From IMG/VR virus record IMGVR_UViG_3300021256_000058, positions 1 to 53,822 of that record: a stretch of DNA of 53,822 bases, one strand, 5' to 3'. Below the pieces are notes generated by a model. The model had not been told where the DNA came from and searched no databases. It worked only from the letters and a program-made list of their open reading frames with translations. The position numbers and the translations under genes were made by a program. This DNA comes from a virus (Duplodnaviria; Heunggongvirae; Uroviricota; Caudoviricetes). This document shows, in pieces, positions 1,275 to 17,082 of the stretch. How positions within the stretch are numbered: position 1 is the first letter of the stretch; the number at the start of each line of letters is the position of its first letter.

Positions 1275-3029
1275 TTATTCCTAAAATATTGTAAGCATTT
1301 GCTAATAATTTGAACTATGATATAATTGTCTAAATGGATCACAGAATTGTGTTTTGAAGCAATAAAAAGGATCAGATAAATTATTTAATAATGTGTCAGA
1401 AATTTCTTCATTTGTAAGTTTCTTAAAGATTATTTTAATTTCTTCATTTGAATATTTATTTTTACTTTTATATTGGCGCAAGGCTTGAATAATACGCAAT
1501 TTTCGTTGTAAATCATTTAGACCTGGAATTAATATGTTAAGATTATTTTCTATTGGATTTAAAATAGCAAAATTCATATCAAATAAAATATTTGAATCTG
1601 TAATTAAGAATAAATTATTCCAATCAGAACGCATTAGATTGCCTTCAAATACTCCATTATGTTTAGTATTTGAATTCATAATATTAACAATATTTTTAAA
1701 AGAAGCAAAAGCCTCTTCATCTTTATTATTTATTATGTCATAATTTAATTGATTTAATAATGCTAAATTATTAAACCAAGAACGTTTTAAATTTTTTGAA
1801 GTGAATTTAAAATTTTTACTTTTTTCAGTATTTAATGGTAAATTAGAAATAACTGTATGGATAGCATACATATTTGGACTTAAACTCATATCACAATAAT
1901 TAACTTTTAAACCTAATTTATTGCAAAAATTAATGTAATATTCATTTAATTCTTCATTAGAAATATCTCTGTTTTGTAAAAATACTTCAGAATTCCAAGG
2001 TACTATTTTTGAATTTAATAATATTGTTTCTGGGATATATGCTGCACCTGTGCAATTATTTAAATAATGAATAAGAAATTCTTCCGGGTTTTTATTACGA
2101 GATGGCATTTGATTATCAATAAAACTATTATATGATTTTATACCTTGATATAATTCTGTTAAAATACGCTCTAAAGCAATATCAATTACAGGGAAGCTTC
2201 CAAAATTAACACGAGCATTAGGAATATTTGGATTAATTAATATCGACGCTACAGCAGGTACTTTAAAATTATATGATAAATCTAATAAATAAATAGTATA
2301 TCCTAATTCTTCAAGATTTAACATAATTTGTAAGATATATTCATTATGAATAGACTATTTATCAATAATAAAAAATTCTTCTTGCGGTGACATATAAAAT
2401 TGCATATTAGCATAATGTTCCATAATTTCAGACAAACCTTGATTCAAAGCTTCTTGTATAGTATTACCAGCGCTCATGCCAATACTACAATTTACAGCTT
2501 GTGCAATTCTAGGGTCTAAATAAATAGTCTCGTCATGATTAAATCCTTTATATGGCAAACCAATTAAATTATTATTTGTAATTAAATTAAAGAAATCTTT
2601 AATTAGTTCTTCATTATTTAGATAATCATCAAAATAATGAGAAATAAAAGGATATTGATAAATTTCTTCAAATGTTATTTTTTTCTCCAGTGGACTAATA
2701 TAATAATTATTTTTATTATAACAAAGTTGCATCCCAAGTTCATTAACAATTGGGATACTGAAGTATTGAATGCGATTACAGAAACGCTCATAGCTTTCCG
2801 CAAATGCTGATGCTAGACTAAAAAGTTCAGTAGCACCTTTCCCATTGGATTTACCTACTAAGATACCATTATAATATACTTCTAATCCAGCCCACCAAGT
2901 GTTTGCTTCACTCTATTCACTAGCTGTAATTTTGTAGGTACATCCACGTTCAGTAAAAAAATCTTTTACAATTTGGATTGTATCTTCTGGAGAGCGTTCT
3001 TTAAATTTAATATCTAAATTAGTCATCAT
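1275..3029 (-). CDS. ycaO: YcaO-family protein, about 584 aa, read through 4 in-frame TAG codons
   Basis: Track ORFs 2355-2732 and 1302-2324 are in frame and separated only by TAG (TAGs at 2913, 2355, 1302, 1281). Joined protein has KERSPEDT, SNGKGATELFSLASAFAESYERF, SIGMSAGNTIQEALNQGLSEIMEH and ALERILTELYQG. True stop is TAA at 1275. Confidence 0.9.
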
Positions 3030-4020
3030 TTTTATCCTTCAATAATTGTATAAATTCTTTGACTGGGATATTATCAATACTATCATATAATATTTCAGCA
3101 TTTGATAATGAATTCCAAATATTATGATTAATAATTTGAGCAAATAATAATGTATCTAAATCAAACGTATATCCATATTTATCGTAAAAATATTTTGCCC
3201 CTGATAAAGAATCATTTTTATATTCTTTATTTGAAATAACAGTATTTAAATAATTTGTATACATTGATCCAAATACATCATAAATTAATGGCAAAAAAGA
3301 TTGTATTGGAGGATCAAAATTTTTTTGTATATTGGTAATTGCAAATTCTACATTTTTAGCTAATCCTATATTTTGATCTTTATAAATAAATTCACATTTA
3401 TTAAGTCTAGTAATACTAGTAGGATTATTAGTTTGTAAAATTAAAGGTTCTGCGGTTTCCATAATGCCATGTAGATTAAAATATTTATCTATAAAACGGC
3501 ATTGATGATTAAAACCAATATCTTCATTAGCTCTTGGATATTCAATATTAAAATGAATATTATATTTCGTTAAAAAAGACTTTCGATAAATTTTACCATG
3601 CATACGATTATGTGTCTCTGGAGTTTTATCAAATTCATCGCCATTATCATCTGGCTCTTCTAAATGAGCACATGAGATTACATTTAACGAAGGAGTCTTT
3701 TCCATAATATGAACAAATTTTTTTATTAATTGTGGCAATAAAACAATATCACCACAATCAATAAATGTTATGAATTCACTTTGAGATAAAATTAAACCAT
3801 ACTCTCTAACACCACCAGGGCCAACATTATTTGGACTTTTAATAATATGAATTGGATAGTATTTAGAGAACAAATTAGAAATACTCTCAAAGTCAATATT
3901 TTCAGTTGAGGCATCATCTATAATAAATACTTGCCAATTATAATTTATTGTGCCTAATGAGAAAAGAGTAGAGTATAATCCCTGTTCATCATTATAGCTG
4001 GGAATAATAATATCTAACAT
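3019..4020 (-). CDS. GT2 family glycosyltransferase
   Basis: LDIIIPSYN, IIDDASTE, NVGPGGVRE, FITFIDCGD, GKIYRKSFL, NEDIGFN. Confidence 0.9.
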   Translation of the reverse strand: MLDIIIPSYNDEQGLYSTLFSLGTINYNWQVFIIDDASTENIDFESISNLFSKYYPIHIIKSPNNVGPGGVREYGLILSQSEFITFIDCGDIVLLPQLIKKFVHIMEKTPSLNVISCAHLEEPDDNGDEFDKTPETHNRMHGKIYRKSFLTKYNIHFNIEYPRANEDIGFNHQCRFIDKYFNLHGIMETAEPLILQTNNPTSITRLNKCEFIYKDQNIGLAKNVEFAITNIQKNFDPPIQSFLPLIYDVFGSMYTNYLNTVISNKEYKNDSLSGAKYFYDKYGYTFDLDTLLFAQIINHNIWNSLSNAEILYDSIDNIPVKEFIQLLKDKNDD

Positions 4021-4329
4021 TTATACAGCTAATCCTTTCTCTTCGCACCAATCATTTTTTGCTTTTTGTCCTAAAATATTGAAAATATGAGTATTGTCAA
4101 TTGATTGAAATGGATAAATGTTATAGATATAAAATCTATCCATTGAGCCATCAGCATACCAAATCATGCGTTCAACACTTGCAGTATTATTACGTACGGG
4201 AGCCCGCATAGTTAAACAAATATATGGTAAATTTAAATCTTTAATTTCTTGGACAGTCACAAAATGATTAAAATCATCTGCATGAGTTCCCCCGTTAGGA
4301 AACATTTCATTAATTTTCTCCCAAGCCAT
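4021..4329 (-). CDS. Hypothetical protein inside the rSAM/YcaO operon
   Basis: 102 aa ORF with GGAGGA SD, abutting both neighbours. Confidence 0.7.
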   Translation of the reverse strand: MAWEKINEMFPNGGTHADDFNHFVTVQEIKDLNLPYICLTMRAPVRNNTASVERMIWYADGSMDRFYIYNIYPFQSIDNTHIFNILGQKAKNDWCEEKGLAV

Positions 4330-5737
4330 ATTCTTCCTCCACTCGATTCATTATCGCTAAAAATTCTTGGGCTCTAGTGTATCCAGGCTCATATGGAGAG
4401 ATAGTTTTCCATATTTCATCGATCCCATATTCTTTTAATTTATGGAAAATATGAGAAATTTTATGATAATAAAAATTACATACGCTTTCAATAGGAACAA
4501 AAGGATCATCATTCGTTTCTAATTGAGATCCAAAACAACCTTTAATACAAACTGGATTAAATGGGCAAGTATCACATTTTAATGAACAAAGATTATTATT
4601 CATAAATAAAATACGTTCTGCCATATATACATTATTAGAAACAATATCAGTAATTTTATCATTTTCAACTTTAAAATGACCATACAAATATTTTTTATAA
4701 GCAGTACGATGGCATGGGCAAATAGCTAAATCACCCAACCTTACGGTTAATTCTAATGATACAGAACATCCAGGAAAAGAATCTGCCATACCTGGAAAAT
4801 AAGGAATATATCCTGTTAATGTATCTCTTGCTCGATAATTAGGGTCCATAATTAAACTATAGGCTAATCCTTCTGTACTATATTTGCTTAAATACCGTTC
4901 TAATAAATAATCCATAAATTCATTATAATGTTTTATACTTTCTTCAGTCCAATTGTTATTTCGGACTTCTAACATCATAATACATTGATCGGGATCAATA
5001 TCGTATTTTTCACATTCTTCTACCCACCATTTATGATTTTCTATCCATCGGTCTACGTCAATTGCTGCTACCATTGGATGAAAATAAAACTCATGATGTT
5101 TCGCAAATAAAAACATTCTTTCATAAAAAGCATCATTATTAACACTAGCATCATTATGTGGGCGCGCTTGTTCTTCAATAATTTTTCCATCAATTGAAAT
5201 AGAAAAAGCAATTCTAATATTTTTATTAGCAAATTTATGCAATCTTTGTTCTATTCTACCAGTTTGGACTGGATCTTTTAAAAAAGAACAATTAGACGGA
5301 ATCATTATAAACTCAGTTTTAAAACCTTCTAAAATCTTTTTATAAATTAAATCAAGAACATCTAGGCCAAATTGAGCATGCCAAATTTCGCCTGTAAATA
5401 GATCAATTCTTGGTATGTACATATCATTTTCAATAAACCAATCAAAAAGAATGTTAAGATTATGAAGAATTGTTTCAGGATTATTACATTCTTGAGGATA
5501 TAATTCATTACCATGCTTTACTAAATAACAATATTCACAATGTTGATTACAAGTAGATGTAATAAATAGTTCTAATCCAATATCGTCTATTAAGCTAAAA
5601 TCACGAACATCAGAATCTTCTCTTAATTCTTTATTTTTCCAAATCTTAAAAAAACGTTCTTCTAACATCATTTTTAGCATCTTATCATGTTCTTCTTGAT
5701 AGATTTCTTTTCTATTTAAAATTAACTCATTATTCAT
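4310..5737 (-). CDS. Radical SAM enzyme with SPASM domain
   Basis: CNQHCEYC motif, SISIDG, C-terminal C...GDLAICPCH...CDTCPFNPVCIKGC. Start moved to ATG 5737, which has a GAAGGAG SD. Confidence 0.9.
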   Translation of the reverse strand: MNNELILNRKEIYQEEHDKMLKMMLEERFFKIWKNKELREDSDVRDFSLIDDIGLELFITSTCNQHCEYCYLVKHGNELYPQECNNPETILHNLNILFDWFIENDMYIPRIDLFTGEIWHAQFGLDVLDLIYKKILEGFKTEFIMIPSNCSFLKDPVQTGRIEQRLHKFANKNIRIAFSISIDGKIIEEQARPHNDASVNNDAFYERMFLFAKHHEFYFHPMVAAIDVDRWIENHKWWVEECEKYDIDPDQCIMMLEVRNNNWTEESIKHYNEFMDYLLERYLSKYSTEGLAYSLIMDPNYRARDTLTGYIPYFPGMADSFPGCSVSLELTVRLGDLAICPCHRTAYKKYLYGHFKVENDKITDIVSNNVYMAERILFMNNNLCSLKCDTCPFNPVCIKGCFGSQLETNDDPFVPIESVCNFYYHKISHIFHKLKEYGIDEIWKTISPYEPGYTRAQEFLAIMNRVEEEYGLGEN

Positions 5738-7112
5738 TAAATAATTGCTCTCCTTCTGGGCGATAAATATAATCAATTGCTCCATTTAAGAGTAATTTAA
5801 TTATACCATGATCTTGTAATAAAATAGATCCTGTCATATTAAAATTATCTTTAATACAAGTAGATACCCCATGAGCTTGAATAATTTGTGCAGCTCTTAC
5901 TGCCTGCTCTTCTGAGACATATTTTTCATCTATTAATCCGGCCATTGCTAACAATACTATTTCATTTGCAATAATAGCCAATCTTGCGCTAGCATTATCA
6001 ATATTAAAGCAATGCATTGAATCGCTAAATGTTTTATAGTTTTGCTCATTTAATAATAAATGAATAGGACGGTCCGCAATAAACTCATCAAAATTAATAG
6101 TTCCATCAGTAATACGTTTTGACTGCTCGGCCAATGTCTTATATTCTAGAGCCATATTAGTATATCCTTCATGACAAGAAGATACTAAATTATTAGGCAA
6201 AAGACCGATAGAAGTAGTTCCTACACCGCAAGTATATCCTGGTTGATGAACTGTTATATATGAAGGAATATAACAATCGCGTAAAGAATCATATGGAGTT
6301 ATTTCATGATAATATTCAAAATAGTAATTAGTATCATTTTCATCTTCTATTTCTCGGCATCTCTTACAAAAGTCAGCGAAATATATACCATCTGCTTTTG
6401 TTACTGGACTTGGCACAGCAGTATTTGGTACTGGAGGAGCAATTTCTATATTATCAAAGTTATTTTTTTCCCTAAAAGGTCTTATAAAAGTATCTTCAAA
6501 AAATTGATAATATTCAATAATTGATTCTTTTGTATTTAATGCATATAAACTATTTAAATCTAATGTAGGTTTAATAGTTACTACAAAATGAATATTCGGC
6601 CCTATATAATCACTTAACATTTCATTCATTTTATAAAAATTTTCTAAACATCTTTTTGTAGTGCCTTTGCCTCTATTGGTATCATTTATATACTCTGGGC
6701 CATCACAAGACAACTATAACTGAAATACAAAATCCCTATAGTCATATTTATTAAATTGCTTAATTAAACCAAATAATTGATCTGTCCAAGTTGGGTAAGA
6801 AAAATTTGTCGATGAATAAAAATGATAAAAATAAGGATATTCTTCTATAATTTGATTTAAAACATGATAAATTCGGTCCATATGAATAAATGGTTCTCCG
6901 CCCCAAGTTTCTACATGAGATAGCTGCCCTTTATTTGGGAACCATTTTCTAATTTGTTCGATATAATAATCACCCTAAAAACTTTCTTCTAACTTTTGAT
7001 CTATTTCTAATAATGCTGGATTTTTGTCAATACCACAATATCTGCACTGTAAATTACAAATACCAGTAGGAAAAAGTGTTAGAGTATTAAATTCATTTTT
7101 AAATTTTTCCAT
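5730..7112 (-). CDS. Radical SAM enzyme, about 460 aa, 2 in-frame TAG codons
   Basis: Reading through TAG at 6714 and 6975 extends the track ORF to MEKFKNEFNTLTLFPTGICNLQCRYC...WGGEPF...STNF...LSCDG. Partial SPASM/twitch motif CGVG...SSCH. Confidence 0.9.
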
Positions 7113-10241: not shown

Positions 10242-11795
10242 TTACTTAATACAAGCATAACGCTCGGTATTAAGCTTCTCCATCATGAGGTCATAGCCAG
10301 TCTTACCTGACATAATGGTCTCAAAGATAGCAGGAGAAAAACCGCTAACAAAGGAGATAGCTCCCTGTCCCAGCATAGGGATATTATTCTGACGAGCCTG
10401 GACATTCCAGAAAATCAGATGAGGCATCTGATATCCGTGAGCAGCCCACTTCTTTGCGATACCCTCCATAAGAGTATCAGTCTCTGCGGTATTTACTGAA
10501 GTACGACCCCAGGAATACCCGTGGCCACGAGCCTGGTCGAATTCCATATCAGAGATGATAATGATATTCTTAGGCAGGTCGTCCTGAGAACAGTTGTTGC
10601 GAAGCGCAGTATTCAGCAACAGATCGAAAGTAGCTTCGATATTAGTGTTCTCGCAGAGATTGGTGCGATAAATACGCTCAACCTTATCGCAGAAGTCTAC
10701 TCCAGAAGTCTCAATCAGCTGAGGACGAGAACTAAAGGAAACATAATGTCCTGCGAAAGGCCCCTTAGCCTTTTCTGCGCAATACAGGCCAAGAGAGATA
10801 GCAACATTGATAGGAGCTGCCGCATCGCTTCCAGTCATAGAGCCAGAAGTATCAACAACAGCAAGGCCGTTGAAGGAAGCTCCATTGAAATAATCCGCAA
10901 GATTATCCCAATACTTATTTGCCATCAAACGCTGAGTGTCATCCAGAGGAACATCCTTGCGGGAATAGCTCCAGGAGTAACGAGAGCCGTACATTACCTT
11001 AACAGCTTCAGATACGCACTCATAAGGATAAAGAGTCTTTGCATTAACCTTCTTAGTGGTATCCTTAGCGAAGTCTGCATAAGTCTGCACATTGCGCTCA
11101 GACTTTTCACGCTCAAGATCATGACGAGCAAAAGCGTTCTTATAGATCATGCCTGCGCGAGAAGGAATCTTATCGAATTCGATCTCGTCCCAACGGTTCT
11201 CAGACATGAGGCGCTCAACAATGTTGATCTTCTCACGCAGAATCGCAAGAGTCTTACGATACTGCTTATGAGTCATGCCGAGGTACTCGCGAGTCTTGGC
11301 AGCCAGCTTACGGCTATCGCGACTTGAAGTATTTTCAGACTTCATCCACTTTGCGAGCAGGGAAGGAGTCTTGCACTGTACATCCAGCTCAAGCTGAGAC
11401 TTAATCAGAGCCAAAGCATCAGCCTCCAGAGGAGTACCAATAAAGGTATATAGATCATCCCAGCGGCCAAACTCAGGGACATACTTCATATTGCGACGCA
11501 TTGCTGTAGTATCATGATTCGCCAGATAGTGAATTACGACACGGAAGAATCTGCGCTCGCCCTGGCCTCCGCGCACGTCGCGCAGGTAAAACAGGCACTT
11601 AAGTGCATATACAGGGTTTTCAGCATATGCATCCAGAAACAGCTTCAGAACATCAGCATCGCTTCTGGTACGATATGCTCCGCCCATCGCAAACAGATCA
11701 AGCAGATAGCTACGAGTAGTCTTGTGAGCTACAGCTCCATTTTCAGTACGAATATAGTTGGTGGAATTCTTCAATCCATTTATAAAAGTATTCAT
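10242..11795 (-). CDS. DUF2828-family Ro60/TROVE-like protein with C-terminal vWA domain
   Basis: TENGA, RDVRGGQGERRFF, GRWDDL, LLAKW, vWA MIDAS VVDTSGSM and IISDMEFD. Own promoter at 11862-11890. Confidence 0.85.
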   Translation of the reverse strand: MNTFINGLKNSTNYIRTENGAVAHKTTRSYLLDLFAMGGAYRTRSDADVLKLFLDAYAENPVYALKCLFYLRDVRGGQGERRFFRVVIHYLANHDTTAMRRNMKYVPEFGRWDDLYTFIGTPLEADALALIKSQLELDVQCKTPSLLAKWMKSENTSSRDSRKLAAKTREYLGMTHKQYRKTLAILREKINIVERLMSENRWDEIEFDKIPSRAGMIYKNAFARHDLEREKSERNVQTYADFAKDTTKKVNAKTLYPYECVSEAVKVMYGSRYSWSYSRKDVPLDDTQRLMANKYWDNLADYFNGASFNGLAVVDTSGSMTGSDAAAPINVAISLGLYCAEKAKGPFAGHYVSFSSRPQLIETSGVDFCDKVERIYRTNLCENTNIEATFDLLLNTALRNNCSQDDLPKNIIIISDMEFDQARGHGYSWGRTSVNTAETDTLMEGIAKKWAAHGYQMPHLIFWNVQARQNNIPMLGQGAISFVSGFSPAIFETIMSGKTGYDLMMEKLNTERYACIK

Positions 11796-11878
11796 ACGCA
11801 TTCTCCTTTTTCTCATTGTATCCTCTTGGACAAGAGGATAATTTATTTATTTACTATATATATTATATAATATTTTTA

Positions 11879-12957: not shown

Positions 12958-13105
12958 ACGAGAGCCGACTCCAATTAAGGTACTCATTGACATTTTACTT
13001 TCTTTTAATAAATCTGTTATGAGATATATTAATATCCTAATACGTCAGAATTGTTCTGACAACCATTTTCTAAATAATTAGAAAAAAGATTGCTGTTAGG
13101 CTCTC
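12958..13105 (-). ncRNA. ACAGCAA-handle RNA copy 1 (AT-rich hairpin payload)
   Basis: GAGAGCC-TA-ACAGCAA...GGCTCTC-GT, starting right after the tRNA-Gly CCA. 3' boundary uncertain. Confidence 0.45.
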
Positions 13106-13180
13106 TGGAGCGATACGTGAGAATTGAACTCACATCGCCGGTTTGGAAGACCGGAATAATAACCATTATACCAGTATCGC
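13106..13180 (-). tRNA. tRNA-Gly(UCC)
   Basis: CCGGT-CTTCCAA-ACCGG, CCA. Confidence 0.93.
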
Positions 13181-13315
13181 ATACGGTATTTTCTTTATGA
13201 TGTTGAAAATACCAAACAACCATATAGGGGATAGGAATTAAAAGGGGAACGAAAGTTTTCTTTCTCAACTTTCTATATATATTATAACATTTTTTTTTAA
13301 AAATGTCAAATATTT

Positions 13316-13837
13316 TTAGTCCCATAAATGTCCGAAAACATGCTTCATCATGTCAAAAGCTTTATTTCGACATTCTGTACGATAATTATCTAAAGTGATT
13401 TCTCCATCGAGATATTTCTGAGAAATCTCTTTTTGCTCAGGAGTTTGTTCATTTATATGATTTATCCAATTATCTTGGCTAATCATATCTTCAAACTCTT
13501 TTTCATATGGATTCTGAAGGGTTTGACAACCTTCAATAGACTGTTCAAATAAATCTGCCATGGTCCGCAAATATTTATCCCAATCTTCTGGTTGCGGAAA
13601 TTCATCATTTCCAGGCCAACCATGGGTATGATCAGCGAAATAACGTAAACTATTTACAAAAAGAAAACTATAATATACATCTAAATCCCAAGAGTCCCAA
13701 TCACAAAAACCTTTAGTAGCTCTTTGATAAGCATACTTAAAACATCTAAAAAAATGTTTTATATTATGAGGCCAATTTGAGAGATATTTCCAAGTTGAAT
13801 AATTTCCTTTATTAAATACATTCAATTCATTACCCAT
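13316..13837 (-). CDS. Hypothetical phage protein
   Basis: MGNELNVF... with GAGGA SD. The track start at 13885 lies inside tRNA-Leu. Confidence 0.75.
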   Translation of the reverse strand: MGNELNVFNKGNYSTWKYLSNWPHNIKHFFRCFKYAYQRATKGFCDWDSWDLDVYYSFLFVNSLRYFADHTHGWPGNDEFPQPEDWDKYLRTMADLFEQSIEGCQTLQNPYEKEFEDMISQDNWINHINEQTPEQKEISQKYLDGEITLDNYRTECRNKAFDMMKHVFGHLWD

Positions 13838-13855
13838 ATGAATCCTCTTTTCTTT

Positions 13856-13942
13856 TGGTGCGGGTAGCCGGATTTGAACCGGCACGGGCTAAGGCCCAAC
13901 AGATTTTAAGTCTGTGGTGTCTACCTATTCCACCATACCCGC
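13856..13942 (-). tRNA. tRNA-Leu(UAA)
   Basis: ACAGA-CTTAAAA-TCTGT, long variable arm, CCA. Confidence 0.95.
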
Positions 13943-13952
13943 ATATTAAATG

Positions 13953-14030
13953 ACAAGACGCACACATAGTTAACAACAGGTCTATGATTTTAAAAAATGG
14001 CGTTGTAAAAAAAATTGCTGCTTGCGTCTT
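13953..14030 (-). ncRNA. ACAGCAA-handle RNA copy 2
   Basis: AAGACGCA-AGCAGCAA...ACAAC/GTTGT inner stem...TGCGTCTT-GT. Confidence 0.6.
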
Positions 14031-14034
14031 TAAA

Positions 14035-14343
14035 TTAAATATTTTCAGAAAGGTCTGCGTCCATACTATCTTGCCTACGCTTGTCCATCATTGAATAATT
14101 AATAGATGGATACCAGCCATTAGCCTTTTGTCTACGTTTACCTTTATTTCTGGTTTTGGCAGAACACATAGGACAACTGCAATGGATCTTGTTTTTAGAA
14201 TACTGATGTAAATTATTGTACCAAGTCCAATGATGAAGTCCTTCTTCATCGTTCCAAGGACGGCCTAAACAATATACATCAATGTTTCTCTTACGTTTAG
14301 CTTTAGTGTAATCTTTATATCTACGCCAAGCTTTTGTCCGCAT
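14035..14343 (-). CDS. Basic hypothetical protein with HCSCPMC motif
   Basis: ORF track; start placed at MRTKAWRR. Confidence 0.65.
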   Translation of the reverse strand: MRTKAWRRYKDYTKAKRKRNIDVYCLGRPWNDEEGLHHWTWYNNLHQYSKNKIHCSCPMCSAKTRNKGKRRQKANGWYPSINYSMMDKRRQDSMDADLSENI

Positions 14344-14369
14344 AAGCAACACACCTTTTCTATAAAATC

Positions 14370-14521
14370 TGGCGGCGGAGCTGGGGTTCGAACCCAGTCA
14401 TACCGGTTTTTGGTGGAGCGCCTCAGTACCGCCCTGAAATCTTCAATACTAGCTTCTTCCTTGCTATGTTCTTTACACCATCGCCCCAGAGACCGGCGTG
14501 CTACCGTTACACCACTCCGCA
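14370..14521 (-). tRNA. Interrupted amber-suppressor tRNA(CUA) with a 77-nt tRNA-Ala-like insert (14411-14487) in the anticodon loop
   Basis: 5' half ...CCGGT-CTCT, insert GGGGCG...CGCTCCACCA, then AAA-ACCGG...T arm...GCCA. Removing the insert gives the 7-nt loop CT-CTA-AA. Confidence 0.7.
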
Positions 14522-14597
14522 TGGCACCCCCACTTCGGAATCGAACCAAGATCTAGAGGGTTAGAGCCTCTCGTGCTGACCATTACACCATAGGGGA
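14522..14597 (-). tRNA. Amber suppressor tRNA(CUA), Gln-type body
   Basis: AGAGG-CTCTAAC-CCTCT, weak 1:72 pair, G73. Loop differs by one base from the local tRNA-Gln(CUG) loop CTCTGAC. Confidence 0.92.
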
Positions 14598-14693
14598 ATA
14601 TATTTGATGTAGGGGGCCCCTTGTATACCGGTTGCCCCTACTTCCGGCCGCCCTTACACATTTCGGTTTTGCTTATGGTTAACCGCAAACCAC

Positions 14694-14784
14694 GCCAGTG
14701 TGCTTTCACGCTAAAAGATTGCCGCATGCCCCACAATCCACTCATTATAGGATGGCTGCTTCTAAGCCCACCTCCTGGCTGTCT
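14694..14784 (-). ncRNA. Mimic of the 23S rRNA L11-binding region (helices 43-44)
   Basis: Minus strand reads AGACAGCCAGGAGGTGGGCTTAGAAGCAGCCATCCTATAATGA-[hairpin insert]-AGCGTGAAAGCACACTGGC, against the bacterial 23S sequence AGACAGCCAGGATGTTGGCTTAGAAGCAGCCATCATTTAAAGAAAGCGTAATAGCTCACTGGT. Confidence 0.85.
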
Positions 14785-14824
14785 TAGAAGTCTTAAACAG
14801 GGTTTCCATTCCTGATGCTTCATA

Positions 14825-14912
14825 TGGCGACGGGAGAGGGACTCGAACCCCCAAGGGCTTTCAGACCCCGACGGTTTTCAGGACCGCGTCCTCATCCAGC
14901 CGGATTCCCGCC
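14825..14912 (-). tRNA. tRNA-Ser(UGA), atypical D arm and C33
   Basis: GCGGT-CCTGAAA-ACCGT, long variable arm, GCCA. Confidence 0.85.
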
Positions 14913-14927
14913 ATATCAAAAGGGTGA

Positions 14928-15269
14928 TTACTCACCCTTAATAGTATTCATAAAATTCTTGAGAGCAGTATCTGCCTTATCCCAAGCGATTGCCGCATCA
15001 GTACGGTAATCTCCCATATCTCTACGATGAAGCTCTGCTGCTTCCAGAGCAGCCTTAGCCTTGCGCTCCTGCTCGACCGCACGGTTAAAACGCTTCTCAG
15101 CGATCTTCTGCGCGCAACGAAGCTCTGCGAGTGTCTTGCCAGTCTCAAGATCGAAATGATCATTGGGGTGGCACTTTGCATATCCCTTTACAGTCTTACC
15201 TGCATAAGTGGAAATTGCAATTACTGTATTGCCAGTCATGGCAAACTTATACTTCGGCTGATGAACCAT
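14928..15269 (-). CDS. Hypothetical phage protein with coiled-coil C-terminus
   Basis: ORF track; GYAKCHPNDHFD motif. Confidence 0.75.
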   Translation of the reverse strand: MVHQPKYKFAMTGNTVIAISTYAGKTVKGYAKCHPNDHFDLETGKTLAELRCAQKIAEKRFNRAVEQERKAKAALEAAELHRRDMGDYRTDAAIAWDKADTALKNFMNTIKGE

Positions 15270-15314
15270 TTTTTTTCAAATCCTTTTTCTCTTTATTTGC
15301 TTTTTGATTAAGCA

Positions 15315-15390
15315 TGGAGCAAGTAGAGGGACTTGAACCCTCCCCTCAACCTTGGCAAGGTCGCGTGCTAACCACTGACACCATACCTGC
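15315..15390 (-). tRNA. tRNA-Gly(GCC)
   Basis: CGACC-TTGCCAA-GGTTG, CCA. Confidence 0.95.
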
Positions 15391-15397
15391 ATATTAA

Positions 15398-15595
15398 TTA
15401 TTTATACGTTTGAACAAGATCTTCTATATCCCAGCCCGACATAACTGCACTACAATCAGGGCATTTTATACGCACGGACCGATCATAAACAGGGCCTACT
15501 TCTTCAACATCATTTTTATCAAAAGAAAAACGACATTTACAAATTTTACAAGTTACTTCATAACGATTTAAACCATGTTGAATAATTTGAATCAT
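15398..15595 (-). CDS. Small Zn-ribbon protein
   Basis: CKIC...CPDC, SD and upstream promoter. Confidence 0.7.
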   Translation of the reverse strand: MIQIIQHGLNRYEVTCKICKCRFSFDKNDVEEVGPVYDRSVRIKCPDCSAVMSGWDIEDLVQTYK

Positions 15596-16037
15596 ATATA
15601 TATCCTTTTTTTATTTTATATATATATTATATCATAAAAAAATACAATTGTCAATATTTTAGCCTTTTCTGACAAAAAATTGCTACGGGTGCGTTTTGCC
15701 GAGCCTCGGCCGTTGATGGGAGTTGTCGACAAAAAGACCATGCACAAATGATGCTTATATTCCTATCACAGACGCCGGTTGCCCTCTCTGCGCTCCCACC
15801 TACCATCAGTTTATAAGCAACCATTTTGCATGGTCTTCCTGCTTTAGCTGGCTCAACATATTGGCGAAGAAGTTATTTGCGGCAGTCCTCATAGGAAGGG
15901 CTCTTCTCCACACAGCTAAATCAAACATTTACATAATGAACCGCAAATTCCACATTACAATAATATCTTACCTACAATTACCTACCTCTCTCGTGGTAGG
16001 GACGCTTCGTTTCTCTTTGGGAATACGAAGAAAGTGT

Positions 16038-16156
16038 TCGGGCGTGCTGGACTCACACCAGCTTTCACCGTGCCCCAAGCAAGAAAAAAATTGCTGTCAC
16101 GGAATTTTTCAACACCACGTCTAAAACGGCGGCTCGTTTACTTTGCCTTACGCCCA
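16038..16156 (-). ncRNA. tRNA-like RNA with the ACAGCAA motif inside an expanded anticodon arm
   Basis: GGGCGT/ACGCCC acceptor, D-like arm, CCGTG-ACAGCAA...CACGG, T-like arm GCTGG-TGTGAGT-CCAGC, no CCA. Confidence 0.5.
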
Positions 16157-16157
16157 A

Positions 16158-16232
16158 TGGCACCCCCCAATCGCGTCGAACGATTACTTACTGGGTCAGA
16201 GCCAGTCGTGCAGGCCGCTACACTAGAGGGGT
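16158..16232 (-). tRNA. tRNA-Gln(CUG)
   Basis: ACTGG-CTCTGAC-CCAGT, GCCA. Confidence 0.92.
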
Positions 16233-16238
16233 ATATTA

Positions 16239-16312
16239 TGGCAGCCCTGGCTGGGATCGAACCAACAACGACGGAGTCAAAGTCCGGCGTGTTACCATTA
16301 CACTACAGGGCT
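16239..16312 (-). tRNA. tRNA-Gln(UUG)
   Basis: CCGGA-CTTTGAC-TCCGT, GCCA. Confidence 0.93.
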
Positions 16313-16328
16313 ATATTTGGAAATTATA

Positions 16329-16604
16329 TTAATTATGAATATAATCTCCATCATTATCACTGAGTGGACGATATTTATCAATCCAAGCAGGGAGAGGATT
16401 ATCATTTGTGTCATTCACAAGGTACATTACTTCACCGAATTCTGCAGAAGCATAAAGAACTCCAAGATAAGATCTTGCATTCACTCTACAACTGCCATCT
16501 TCATTTTCAATACTATATCTAATGAGAGAACCATCAGAATTCATAGCACTAACAAATGCGGTGACATCTTTATTGGTATCCAAACGGATTCTTGCTCTTA
16601 CCAT
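16329..16604 (-). CDS. HPr-fold-like small protein
   Basis: RVNARSYLGVL resembles HPr VNAKSIMGVL around Ser46; no His15 motif seen. Confidence 0.5.
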   Translation of the reverse strand: MVRARIRLDTNKDVTAFVSAMNSDGSLIRYSIENEDGSCRVNARSYLGVLYASAEFGEVMYLVNDTNDNPLPAWIDKYRPLSDNDGDYIHN

Positions 16605-16627
16605 TTATAAAACTCCTAAATATTATT

Positions 16628-16743
16628 ACAAGACACATTGTGTTACATTCACTCTACCCAACTGAGTTACTTACGCCAAGCGCGTGAGACAGGAATTGAA
16701 CCTGCGACATAATGTTACCATTATAATTAGCTGTATGTGTCTT
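16628..16743 (-). ncRNA. ACAGCAA-handle RNA copy 3, YrlA-like permuted tRNA module
   Basis: AAGACACAT-ACAGCTAA...T arm GCAGG-TTCAATT-CCTGT, loop-closed acceptor CTCACGC/GCGTAAG, D arm ACTC-AGTTGGGTA-GAGT...ATGTGTCTT. Confidence 0.8.
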
Positions 16744-16745
16744 TA

Positions 16746-16821
16746 TGGTCGGAGTGGAGGGTCTCGAACCCCCGACCTCCTGATCCCAAATCAGGCGCTC
16801 TACCATCTGAGCCACACCCCG
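16746..16821 (-). tRNA. tRNA-Pro(UGG)
   Basis: CCTGA-TTTGGGA-TCAGG, CCA. Confidence 0.95.
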
Positions 16822-16836
16822 AGATTATGCCTTGAT

Positions 16837-17082
16837 TTAATCAAGGACTTCCGGATAATTTTTAAAGAACTTAAAGAACAAAGGTTCGTCCGCACTTTCA
16901 TCACAGAACAATTCAAGTTCATCACCATGCTCTCCCAAAAGAGCGCCAATGGCAACATACTTAGAAAGTTCAGATTTAAGATTATAACAATCTCCTGCCA
17001 TAGATCTTAAATAAACCGATCCTTTAGCCTGGCTGACCGCACTCAAAAATTCATGTAGTTCTGCCACTTTAGTTATCTTCAT
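16837..17082 (-). CDS. Small conserved Firmicute-type protein, possibly HPr-like fold
   Basis: FLSAV...GSVYL...GDCYNLKSELS...LELFC. Confidence 0.65.
   Translation of the reverse strand: MKITKVAELHEFLSAVSQAKGSVYLRSMAGDCYNLKSELSKYVAIGALLGEHGDELELFCDESADEPLFFKFFKNYPEVLD

Follow-up and report, generated by a model that had tools for sequence, protein, structure and literature searches.

A phage noncoding RNA that resembles the 23S rRNA GTPase-associated centre in sequence and pairing and is predicted to bind uL11 off the ribosome

What is a copy of the uL11-binding domain of 23S rRNA doing among the tRNA genes of a phage? The question is raised by a short minus-strand segment of the window (here, the whole 53,822-nucleotide stretch of DNA that was analysed), which comes from a complete, TAG-recoded gut phage genome of 181,822 bp. 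An earlier note on this DNA proposed that the phage evolved the element as an L11 sponge that weakens RF1-dependent termination beside two amber suppressor tRNAs, that is, as a code switch made of RNA alone.

Minus-strand positions 14779-14694 rebuild positions 1051-1108 of 23S rRNA around a 28-nt insert, with 47 of the 58 letters identical to those of Escherichia coli (E. coli 23S rRNA served as the reference; BLAST matches to 23S rRNA were obtained in 5426 of 5426 E. coli genomes). The 5′ half of the mimic (14740..14779, minus strand) corresponds to 23S 1051-1090 and includes the closing helix, H43, the A1067 loop, the 1082-1086 loop in the form A-U, and A1088; 33 of its 40 letters are E. 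coli-identical, its score with our model R1 is 62.4 bits, and the best match to this 40-mer elsewhere in the 182-kb genome reaches only 23 of 40. The insert (14712..14739, minus strand), located between 1090 and 1091, consists of a 24-nt hairpin and a 4-nt UUUA linker. The 3′ half (14694..14711, minus strand) corresponds to 23S 1091-1108 and includes H44 with the change A1095G, a family-type A1101, and the closing helix; 14 of its 18 letters match E. coli. The H43-H44 match and the single extra hairpin described in the earlier note are thus confirmed; the extent given there (14784-14694) holds for the match, although homology to 1051-1108 begins at 14779 and 14784-14780 match the five preceding rRNA letters. 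Of the 11 differences from E. coli, most are exchanges of both partners of a pair (1058/1080, 1082/1086) or features of the family (G1089, U1090, and A1101, which pairs with U1090); this copy does not preserve the H42 kink on its 3′ side. The homology to rRNA does not continue past the domain as it would in a member of RF02541: Rfam detects only tRNAs in the window, with no LSU rRNA match at gathering thresholds or, on 13500-16000, at E up to 10, so that no other rRNA lies nearby, as had been claimed; nor did the mimic locus match any Rfam leader, intron, or ribozyme (gathering, E up to 10). Minimum free energy folding did not recover the domain and performed no better than shuffles (z -0.59), as expected of a tertiary fold.

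Small structured elements flank the mimic on the same strand. A 5′ stem-loop (14787..14821) is kept in the three closest homologues of the mimic, with both sides of its pairs changed, and a small GGUU/AACC hairpin (14676..14692) is kept 3′ of the mimic in three relatives; the latter may be a separate spacer element, since comparable units are present at other places in related tRNA arrays. A predicted H-type pseudoknot (14609..14649) shows compensatory changes, from alignment, in the relative G054. More generally, the spacers of these tRNA arrays contain recurrent small hairpin and pseudoknot units, with the mimic present or absent (window 14692-14609; contigs L718, L720, L577, and L588).

A 16-letter pattern search of viral contigs produced about 260 matching stretches, 120 of them among the matches listed, and the collected loci yielded 92 two-ended elements with 88 distinct cores, after a filter that required at least 5 of the 8 closing pairs. 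Each of the family elements closes on itself by a helix of its own sequence. In the 88 cores, the 1058-1080 pair is UA in 39, GC in 33, AU in 10, CG in 4, and other in 2; the 1057-1081 pair is AU in 73, CG in 11, and other in 4; and the tertiary 1082-1086 pair is UA in 49, CG in 21, AU in 8, and other in 10. In a 71-row alignment of the family, 97.9% of the cells are paired, a level reached by none of 500 shuffles (with the kinship of the rows left in); in the shuffle and 88-core analyses alike, the search pattern accounts in part for the conservation of the H43 loop, and the filter for that of the closing helix. Furthermore, C1072, C1092, and G1099 jointly change to U, U, and A in two relatives of the phage, G054 (in two copies) and G078; such a change at 1072-1092-1099 is a base-triple swap of the rRNA uL11-binding domain. 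The covariation that the earlier note had suggested looking for is therefore present in the 88 cores, in helical pairs and in tertiary ones (1082-1086 and the triple). Judged by these patterns of change, the mimic copies the structure of the uL11-binding domain and is under selection.

The insert occupies one fixed site in 87 of the 88 cores and ranges from 28 nt, the shortest non-zero length, which is that of the window copy, to 338 nt. Its opening helix, stacked directly on U1090, has at least four pairs in 63 of the 87 cores, compared to at most 32 in 200 end swaps, and its 3′ linker is UUUR in 84-85 of 87. Stand-alone copies that lack the insert were observed as well: one in L275 at about 1490-1550 (G077), where C1090 is paired with G1101, and another in L115 at about 2960-3030, which keeps the rRNA-type U1101 and directly precedes an ORF. 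In the divergent members L578 (G071; about 1500-1580) and L715 (G088; 1501-1541), the H43 loop is unlike that of rRNA, with the junction and the 3′ linker kept; because exact-pattern searches miss such members, the family is larger than counted. A subfamily (L002, L025, L034, and L040) retains the H42 kink region on both strands and hence might bind uL10 as well.

Among 121 loci of the genome collection chosen by the 3′ half, 34 gave two-ended matches, and a second viral contig (L007) carries a sequence identical to the window mimic. The cultured carriers include phages of Pseudomonas, Serratia, Aeromonas, Vibrio, and others; unannotated mimics lie between tRNA-Asn and tRNA-Pro in phage pf16 and between two ORFs in GAP32. 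tRNA genes were found within 3-6 kb in 49 of 65 family loci; among the neighbouring proteins, no family was seen at more than 5 of the 65. Of 26 large control records with tRNA genes, one contains the mimic, which is thus uncommon overall. Rfam searches of 31 family loci produced no intron or ribozyme match; among 11 loci, RF02541 matched only a true rRNA contig, L009, and 20 further family loci gave tRNA matches alone, showing no membership in the group I intron, GOLLD, ROOL, or other such families. Three carriers contain many long frames with internal TGA (G001, in L446; G009, in L440-L441; G007, in L447-L448), which may reflect TGA recoding or a high-GC artefact; the terminase frames of G001 and G009 are open in code 11.

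The two functional faces of the domain differ in how well they are kept. The nucleotides at the surface of the L11 C-terminal domain, given in the accessible part of the source as 1058-1060, 1062-1065, 1075-1083, and 1088 (PMC1802607), all fall in the uninterrupted 5′ half of the mimic, untouched by the insert, and at 1058/1080 and 1082/1086 both partners of the pair have changed. In the model matches among 100 loci chosen by the 3′ half, U1060, A1084, A1085, G1087, and A1088 are invariant (31 of 31), and A1067 is replaced by G in 6 of 29 of the same 31-match set. A1095 is changed in 6 of the 88 cores, including the window copy (A1095G), and the A1067 loop sequence is lost in some relatives (G071), with A1067 and A1095 still the majority bases of the family; the same partial source lists these two bases as thiopeptide contacts (PMC1802607). 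Comparison of the sequences thus indicates that the protein-binding face is better kept than the bases that face factors and thiopeptides. Because the latter vary more than those that hold the fold, uL11 is favoured as the ligand, and the mimic RNA quite probably binds it.

The genetic code of the phage is as claimed in the earlier note. In the late region, TAG is needed as a sense codon, with long-frame coverage of 0.52 in code 11 vs 0.79 in code 15, and TAG aligns in relatives with Gln most commonly (414 columns) and with Lys next (120). On the minus strand of the window, genes at 1275..7112 (YcaO-like, radical SAM) have frames that need TAG as sense. In this stretch, which is outside the late region, YcaO-like, glycosyltransferase, and radical SAM genes are consecutive, two of them with in-frame TAG. 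Searches of the genome for release-factor and L11 genes found neither, and a scan of 140 ORFs detected no ribosomal protein family; RNA ligase (PF09414), kinase-like, and phosphoesterase genes are among these ORFs. They cluster outside the window, at the end of the phage genome, G000 (L165-L169; L169 9297-13835), a possible RNA repair set. With TAG as sense and an encoded tRNA(CUA), the genome belongs with those that carry a code-change module.

A sigma-70-type promoter (15626..15654, minus strand) matches the consensus at 12 of 12 positions and has a TG extension; the next such promoter is at 13309, and no terminator-like site was found on the minus strand of 13000-17000. The tRNA-Ser, the mimic, and both CUA tRNA genes all lie downstream of this promoter (15654-15626), which is predicted to drive them. 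The tRNA-Ser(UGA) gene (14825..14913, minus strand), the upstream boundary of the mimic RNA, is where the earlier note had placed it, though seen only as a weak tRNA-clan match (14828-14913) and missed by ARAGORN. Both tRNA(CUA) genes noted on the mimic strand, one intact and one interrupted, are real: the intact, glutamine-like amber suppressor (14522..14596, minus strand) is detected by ARAGORN (14596-14526) and Rfam, with BLAST matches to annotated tRNA-Gln genes, and the interrupted one spans 14521-14370. Of six RNA libraries that contain the phage, four were used; in these, contigs extend over the genes on either side and over a portion of the split tRNA, and no phage contig covers the mimic; RNA depth at 14739-14789 comes from host rRNA alone and is zero over 14556-14717, and the missing contigs do not count against expression of the mimic. 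Elsewhere in the window, a DUF2828/DUF7788 gene (10242-11816), which we take to be Ro/TROVE-like, is near several stem-flanked CAGCAAU motifs of the tRNA array (near 14030, 13100, 16100, and 15690), and G054 (L289) contains a permuted tRNA-like element with a CAGCAAU motif that resembles Y-RNA-like genes.

The second tRNA(CUA) gene (14370..14521, minus strand) is split in the anticodon, and an uninterrupted tRNA(CUA) occupies the same tandem slot in G054. Nested in it is a 77-nt tRNA-like unit (14411..14487, minus strand) with a 6-bp acceptor stem containing G3-U70, an (A)CCA end, and a T-like arm with a non-standard loop; the earlier note did not mention the tRNA-like nature of the interruption. 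Removal of exactly the segment from G1 to CCA (14487-14411) restores, as for a tRNA intron, a 7-nt anticodon loop, CU-CUA-AA, with the anticodon CUA, and the product is called by ARAGORN. Other 77-nt registers give CAA or CUG, and ARAGORN's own register gives CAA; the CUA register is preferred on account of the G1-to-CCA boundaries and the unsplit counterpart in G054. Two metagenome contigs (L718 and L720; 571-722) carry this unit too, at the corresponding site of an outer tRNA that has diverged (of the four metagenome matches, two are real and one unrelated; L717 was left out), and in the three sequences, three pairs of the T-like arm are changed on both sides. In viral contigs, a loose pattern for nested CUA tRNAs produced 103 distinct matches, of which only the phage's own copy is real, and a tighter pattern produced the own copy alone. 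The RNA contigs of the four libraries contain unspliced pieces of the split tRNA, with no joined form seen. Plausibly, tRNA-processing nucleases would free the nested unit by cuts at G1 and behind CCA, and the phage ligase would join the halves. One could imagine that this phage co-opted a widespread uL11-binding RNA into a staged, RNA-only code switch, in which a single early transcript would give a sponge for uL11 to weaken RF1, one amber suppressor that is ready for use, and another that becomes active only after the nested alanine-type tRNA mimic is excised and the halves are ligated; we regard such a scheme as distinctly improbable.

Was the mimic, then, made for code switching, titrating uL11 so as to weaken RF1 while two CUA tRNAs read UAG as Gln? 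In 2002, Van Dyke, Xu, and Murgola reportedly found that a fragment of the L11-binding region expressed in E. coli titrates L11 and impairs UAG termination. The TAG=Gln code of a genome with neither a release-factor nor an L11 gene and the one promoter for the mimic and both CUA genes fit this proposal, as do the role of L11 in RF1-dependent termination, as given in part of PMC1802607, and the room left for new types of code-change RNA in the accessible portion of Borges et al. (bioRxiv 10.1101/2021.08.26.457843). The carriers argue against it. Only 1 of 41 other carriers tested (G020) is TAG-recoded, which falls within the published background of 2-6% of gut phages (Borges et al., bioRxiv 10.1101/2021.08.26.457843); the 41 come from the 50 largest of 75 candidate carriers other than the phage itself, near-duplicates included, with the code called for 23 by a terminase match without internal stop (22 with frames of 520-681 aa) and for 25 from samples of 20-80 kb, G007, G017, G025, and G042 being judged from a 20-40 kb sample alone. 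G020 has a CUA tRNA within 3 kb of its mimic, in favour of the code switch; a candidate close-relative pair of G020 with the standard-code G036 was unsupported by the sampled DNA. The 13 complete genomes of the phage's terminase group comprise 9 TAG-recoded and 4 standard-code ones, and the mimic is present in 3 of the 9 (G000, G054, G063) vs 3 of the 4 (G071, divergent, G077, and G078; Fisher p 0.27), a reversed trend in which its absence from G058 and G068 is less sure, the RNA model having scored at most 150 candidates per genome, and in which G054 (402 kb) looks like two joined genomes. G078 was flagged as TAG-recoded by a coarse density test, yet all seven of its core genes are open in code 11; with G078 counted as recoded, the proportions become 4 of 10 vs 2 of 3 (p 0.56). 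The carrier G077 ends its terminase, portal, and next gene with TAG, so that weaker UAG termination would hurt it.

Nor is the adjacency of the mimic and tRNA(CUA) kept. The two are about 5 kb apart with promoters between them in G054 and 10-14 kb apart in G063, and the two contigs with the nested suppressor, L718 and L720, have no mimic in the 600 nt upstream. A CUA tRNA pattern was found in 11 of 50 carriers vs 3 of 25 large tRNA-bearing controls (p 0.36), a sample small enough to accommodate a modest enrichment. In GAP32 (L713 8754-8828), an annotated suppressor tRNA is 3.8 kb from the mimic, and the terminase is open in the standard code. The outcome that the earlier note had named as refuting, a lack of association with recoding, is thus what the carriers show, and the claim that the mimic evolved for code switching is unsupported; what stands of the earlier interpretation is a stand-alone, selected, covarying mimic that is neither a chimera nor a decaying fragment, the TAG=Gln code of the phage, and the placement of the mimic and both CUA tRNA genes downstream of one promoter. 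As the family's reason for being, the code switch is largely refuted, and a dedicated switch of this kind in the phage appears very unlikely.

Phage tRNAs are thought to buffer anticodon nucleases, and on this model the mimic could be a decoy for host or competitor agents that attack or read the GTPase centre, such as rRNA-modifying or rRNA-cleaving defence toxins or thiopeptides, with uL11 a mere folding cofactor. Its residence in tRNA arrays (49 of 65 loci), the rebuilding of both loops beyond the strict needs of L11 binding, the majority status of A1067 and A1095, and the existence of toxins that act on H44 would all suit a decoy. Against this, A1067 becomes G in 6 of 29 matches, A1095 is changed in 6 of 88 cores including the window copy, the A1067 loop sequence is gone in G071, and no target toxin has been identified; we consider a decoy unlikely, and thiopeptide decoying as the sole purpose is rejected because A1067 and A1095 vary. 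Alternatively, the fold could be a scaffold that recruits uL11, and perhaps translation factors, to present an active variable insert, or the insert could be excised to leave an rRNA-like domain. The fixed insert site (87 of 88), the opening helix on U1090 (63 of 87), and the UUUR end point in this direction, whereas inserts of 0 to 338 nt, the bare 24-nt hairpin of the window copy, the insert-less copies in L275 and L115, and the absence of Rfam intron or ribozyme matches in 31 loci do not, and we do not think a scaffold likely. The probability that the locus is a non-functional captured rRNA fragment or an assembly chimera is close to negligible. Reads of host rRNA do align with the 5′ half of the mimic, and many phage records are contaminated by rRNA; this reading is refuted by the covariation, that is, the compensatory and triple changes, and is further opposed by the lack of rRNA flanks, the closing helix that differs in sequence from phage to phage, the identical sequence in L007, the syntenic homologues in relatives, and the intergenic copies in complete cultured phages.

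On balance, the probable explanation is a phage noncoding RNA in which the sequence of the 23S GTPase-associated centre and its pairings are preserved. This RNA is predicted to adopt the rRNA fold and to bind uL11 off the ribosome, and probably helps the phage to take over host translation in general, with weaker uL11-dependent stringent signalling as the most likely means, rather than to switch the code. A general purpose is suggested by the carriers, which span many hosts and mostly use the standard code. The mimic would be transcribed with the tRNAs from the 15654 promoter, released as a piece of about 225 nt through tRNA processing, and, once folded, would be predicted to bind host uL11 through the contact face described above; capture of uL11 off the ribosome would then damp the stringent-response (ppGpp) shut-down during infection. 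L11 is needed for stringent control, which makes ppGpp damping our first choice of function; as the purpose of the mimic, damping of RelA/ppGpp is the most speculative part of the explanation, and we offer it tentatively, as a possibility somewhat short of even. Weaker UAG termination could be a side benefit in the phage's own genome. The uL11 already in ribosomes is tightly bound, so that the effect of a sponge may be limited to newly made ribosomes, which would be slow on the time scale of a lytic cycle; moreover, a plain sponge leaves unexplained the fixed insert site, the UUUR linker (84-85 of 87), and inserts of up to 338 nt.

If this explanation is correct, a free-standing ribosomal functional centre encoded by a virus would represent a new, RNA-only way of attacking or steering host translation. 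Cultured carriers, such as Pseudomonas putida phage pf16, make deletion of the mimic testable now, and the family amounts to a natural collection of mutants of the classic 58-nt uL11 RNA. With the code switch set aside as the family's purpose, work can be directed at the stringent-response, decoy, and scaffold models. The nested suppressor tRNA suggests a separate, testable route to the timing of stop-codon readthrough, a question in recoded phages.

For the nested suppressor, the nearest description is that of the Lak megaphages, in which, according to the accessible part of the report, a tRNA-Thr(UGU) intron may itself encode a tRNA (PMC6784885). Both are tRNA-like units inside a phage tRNA gene; the unit described here differs, to the extent covered by that part, in that it interrupts an amber suppressor, runs exactly from G1 to CCA, has an alanine-type G3-U70, and contains no standard T loop or anticodon. 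The code-change modules of recoded phages, as far as the available sections of the reports go, consist of a suppressor tRNA, RF2 or RF1, and a synthetase (Borges et al., bioRxiv 10.1101/2021.08.26.457843; Devoto et al., PMC6784885). Like these, the phage has CUA tRNAs and late genes that use TAG for Gln; unlike these, no release factor was found in it, and no rRNA mimic is among the modules described in those sections.

Literature searches, which covered mainly titles and abstracts, with supplements and most subscription papers outside, found no free-standing phage mimic of the uL11 domain, and those on L11 in termination or in the stringent response brought up background alone; the family is new in kind and absent from Rfam (in the window and 31 loci), with a predicted function. 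The engineered fragment of the Murgola laboratory is the same domain off the ribosome and would titrate L11; it is a laboratory construct, whereas the natural family does not track TAG recoding. The leaders of ribosomal protein operons (the uL1 site on rplK-rplA and the uL10 leader) likewise mimic rRNA sites for protein binding, and the part of the leader literature examined contains no uL11 leader (PMC10931766). Leaders, as described there, are cis elements of mRNA before ribosomal protein genes (PMC10931766), whereas the mimic lies between tRNA genes in a genome without an L11 gene; it is followed by tRNA genes and matches no Rfam leader, and thus does not belong with them. The closest known RNA remains the uL11-binding domain of bacterial 23S rRNA itself (the H42 tip, H43, and H44; 1051-1108; PMC1802607, in the part available). 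The mimic differs from it in standing free in a phage tRNA array, in the 1090/1091 insert, in the A1101-U1090 pair, and in having no flanking rRNA. The two have in common 47 of 58 letters, every helix, the 1082-1086 pair, and the nucleotides that contact L11.
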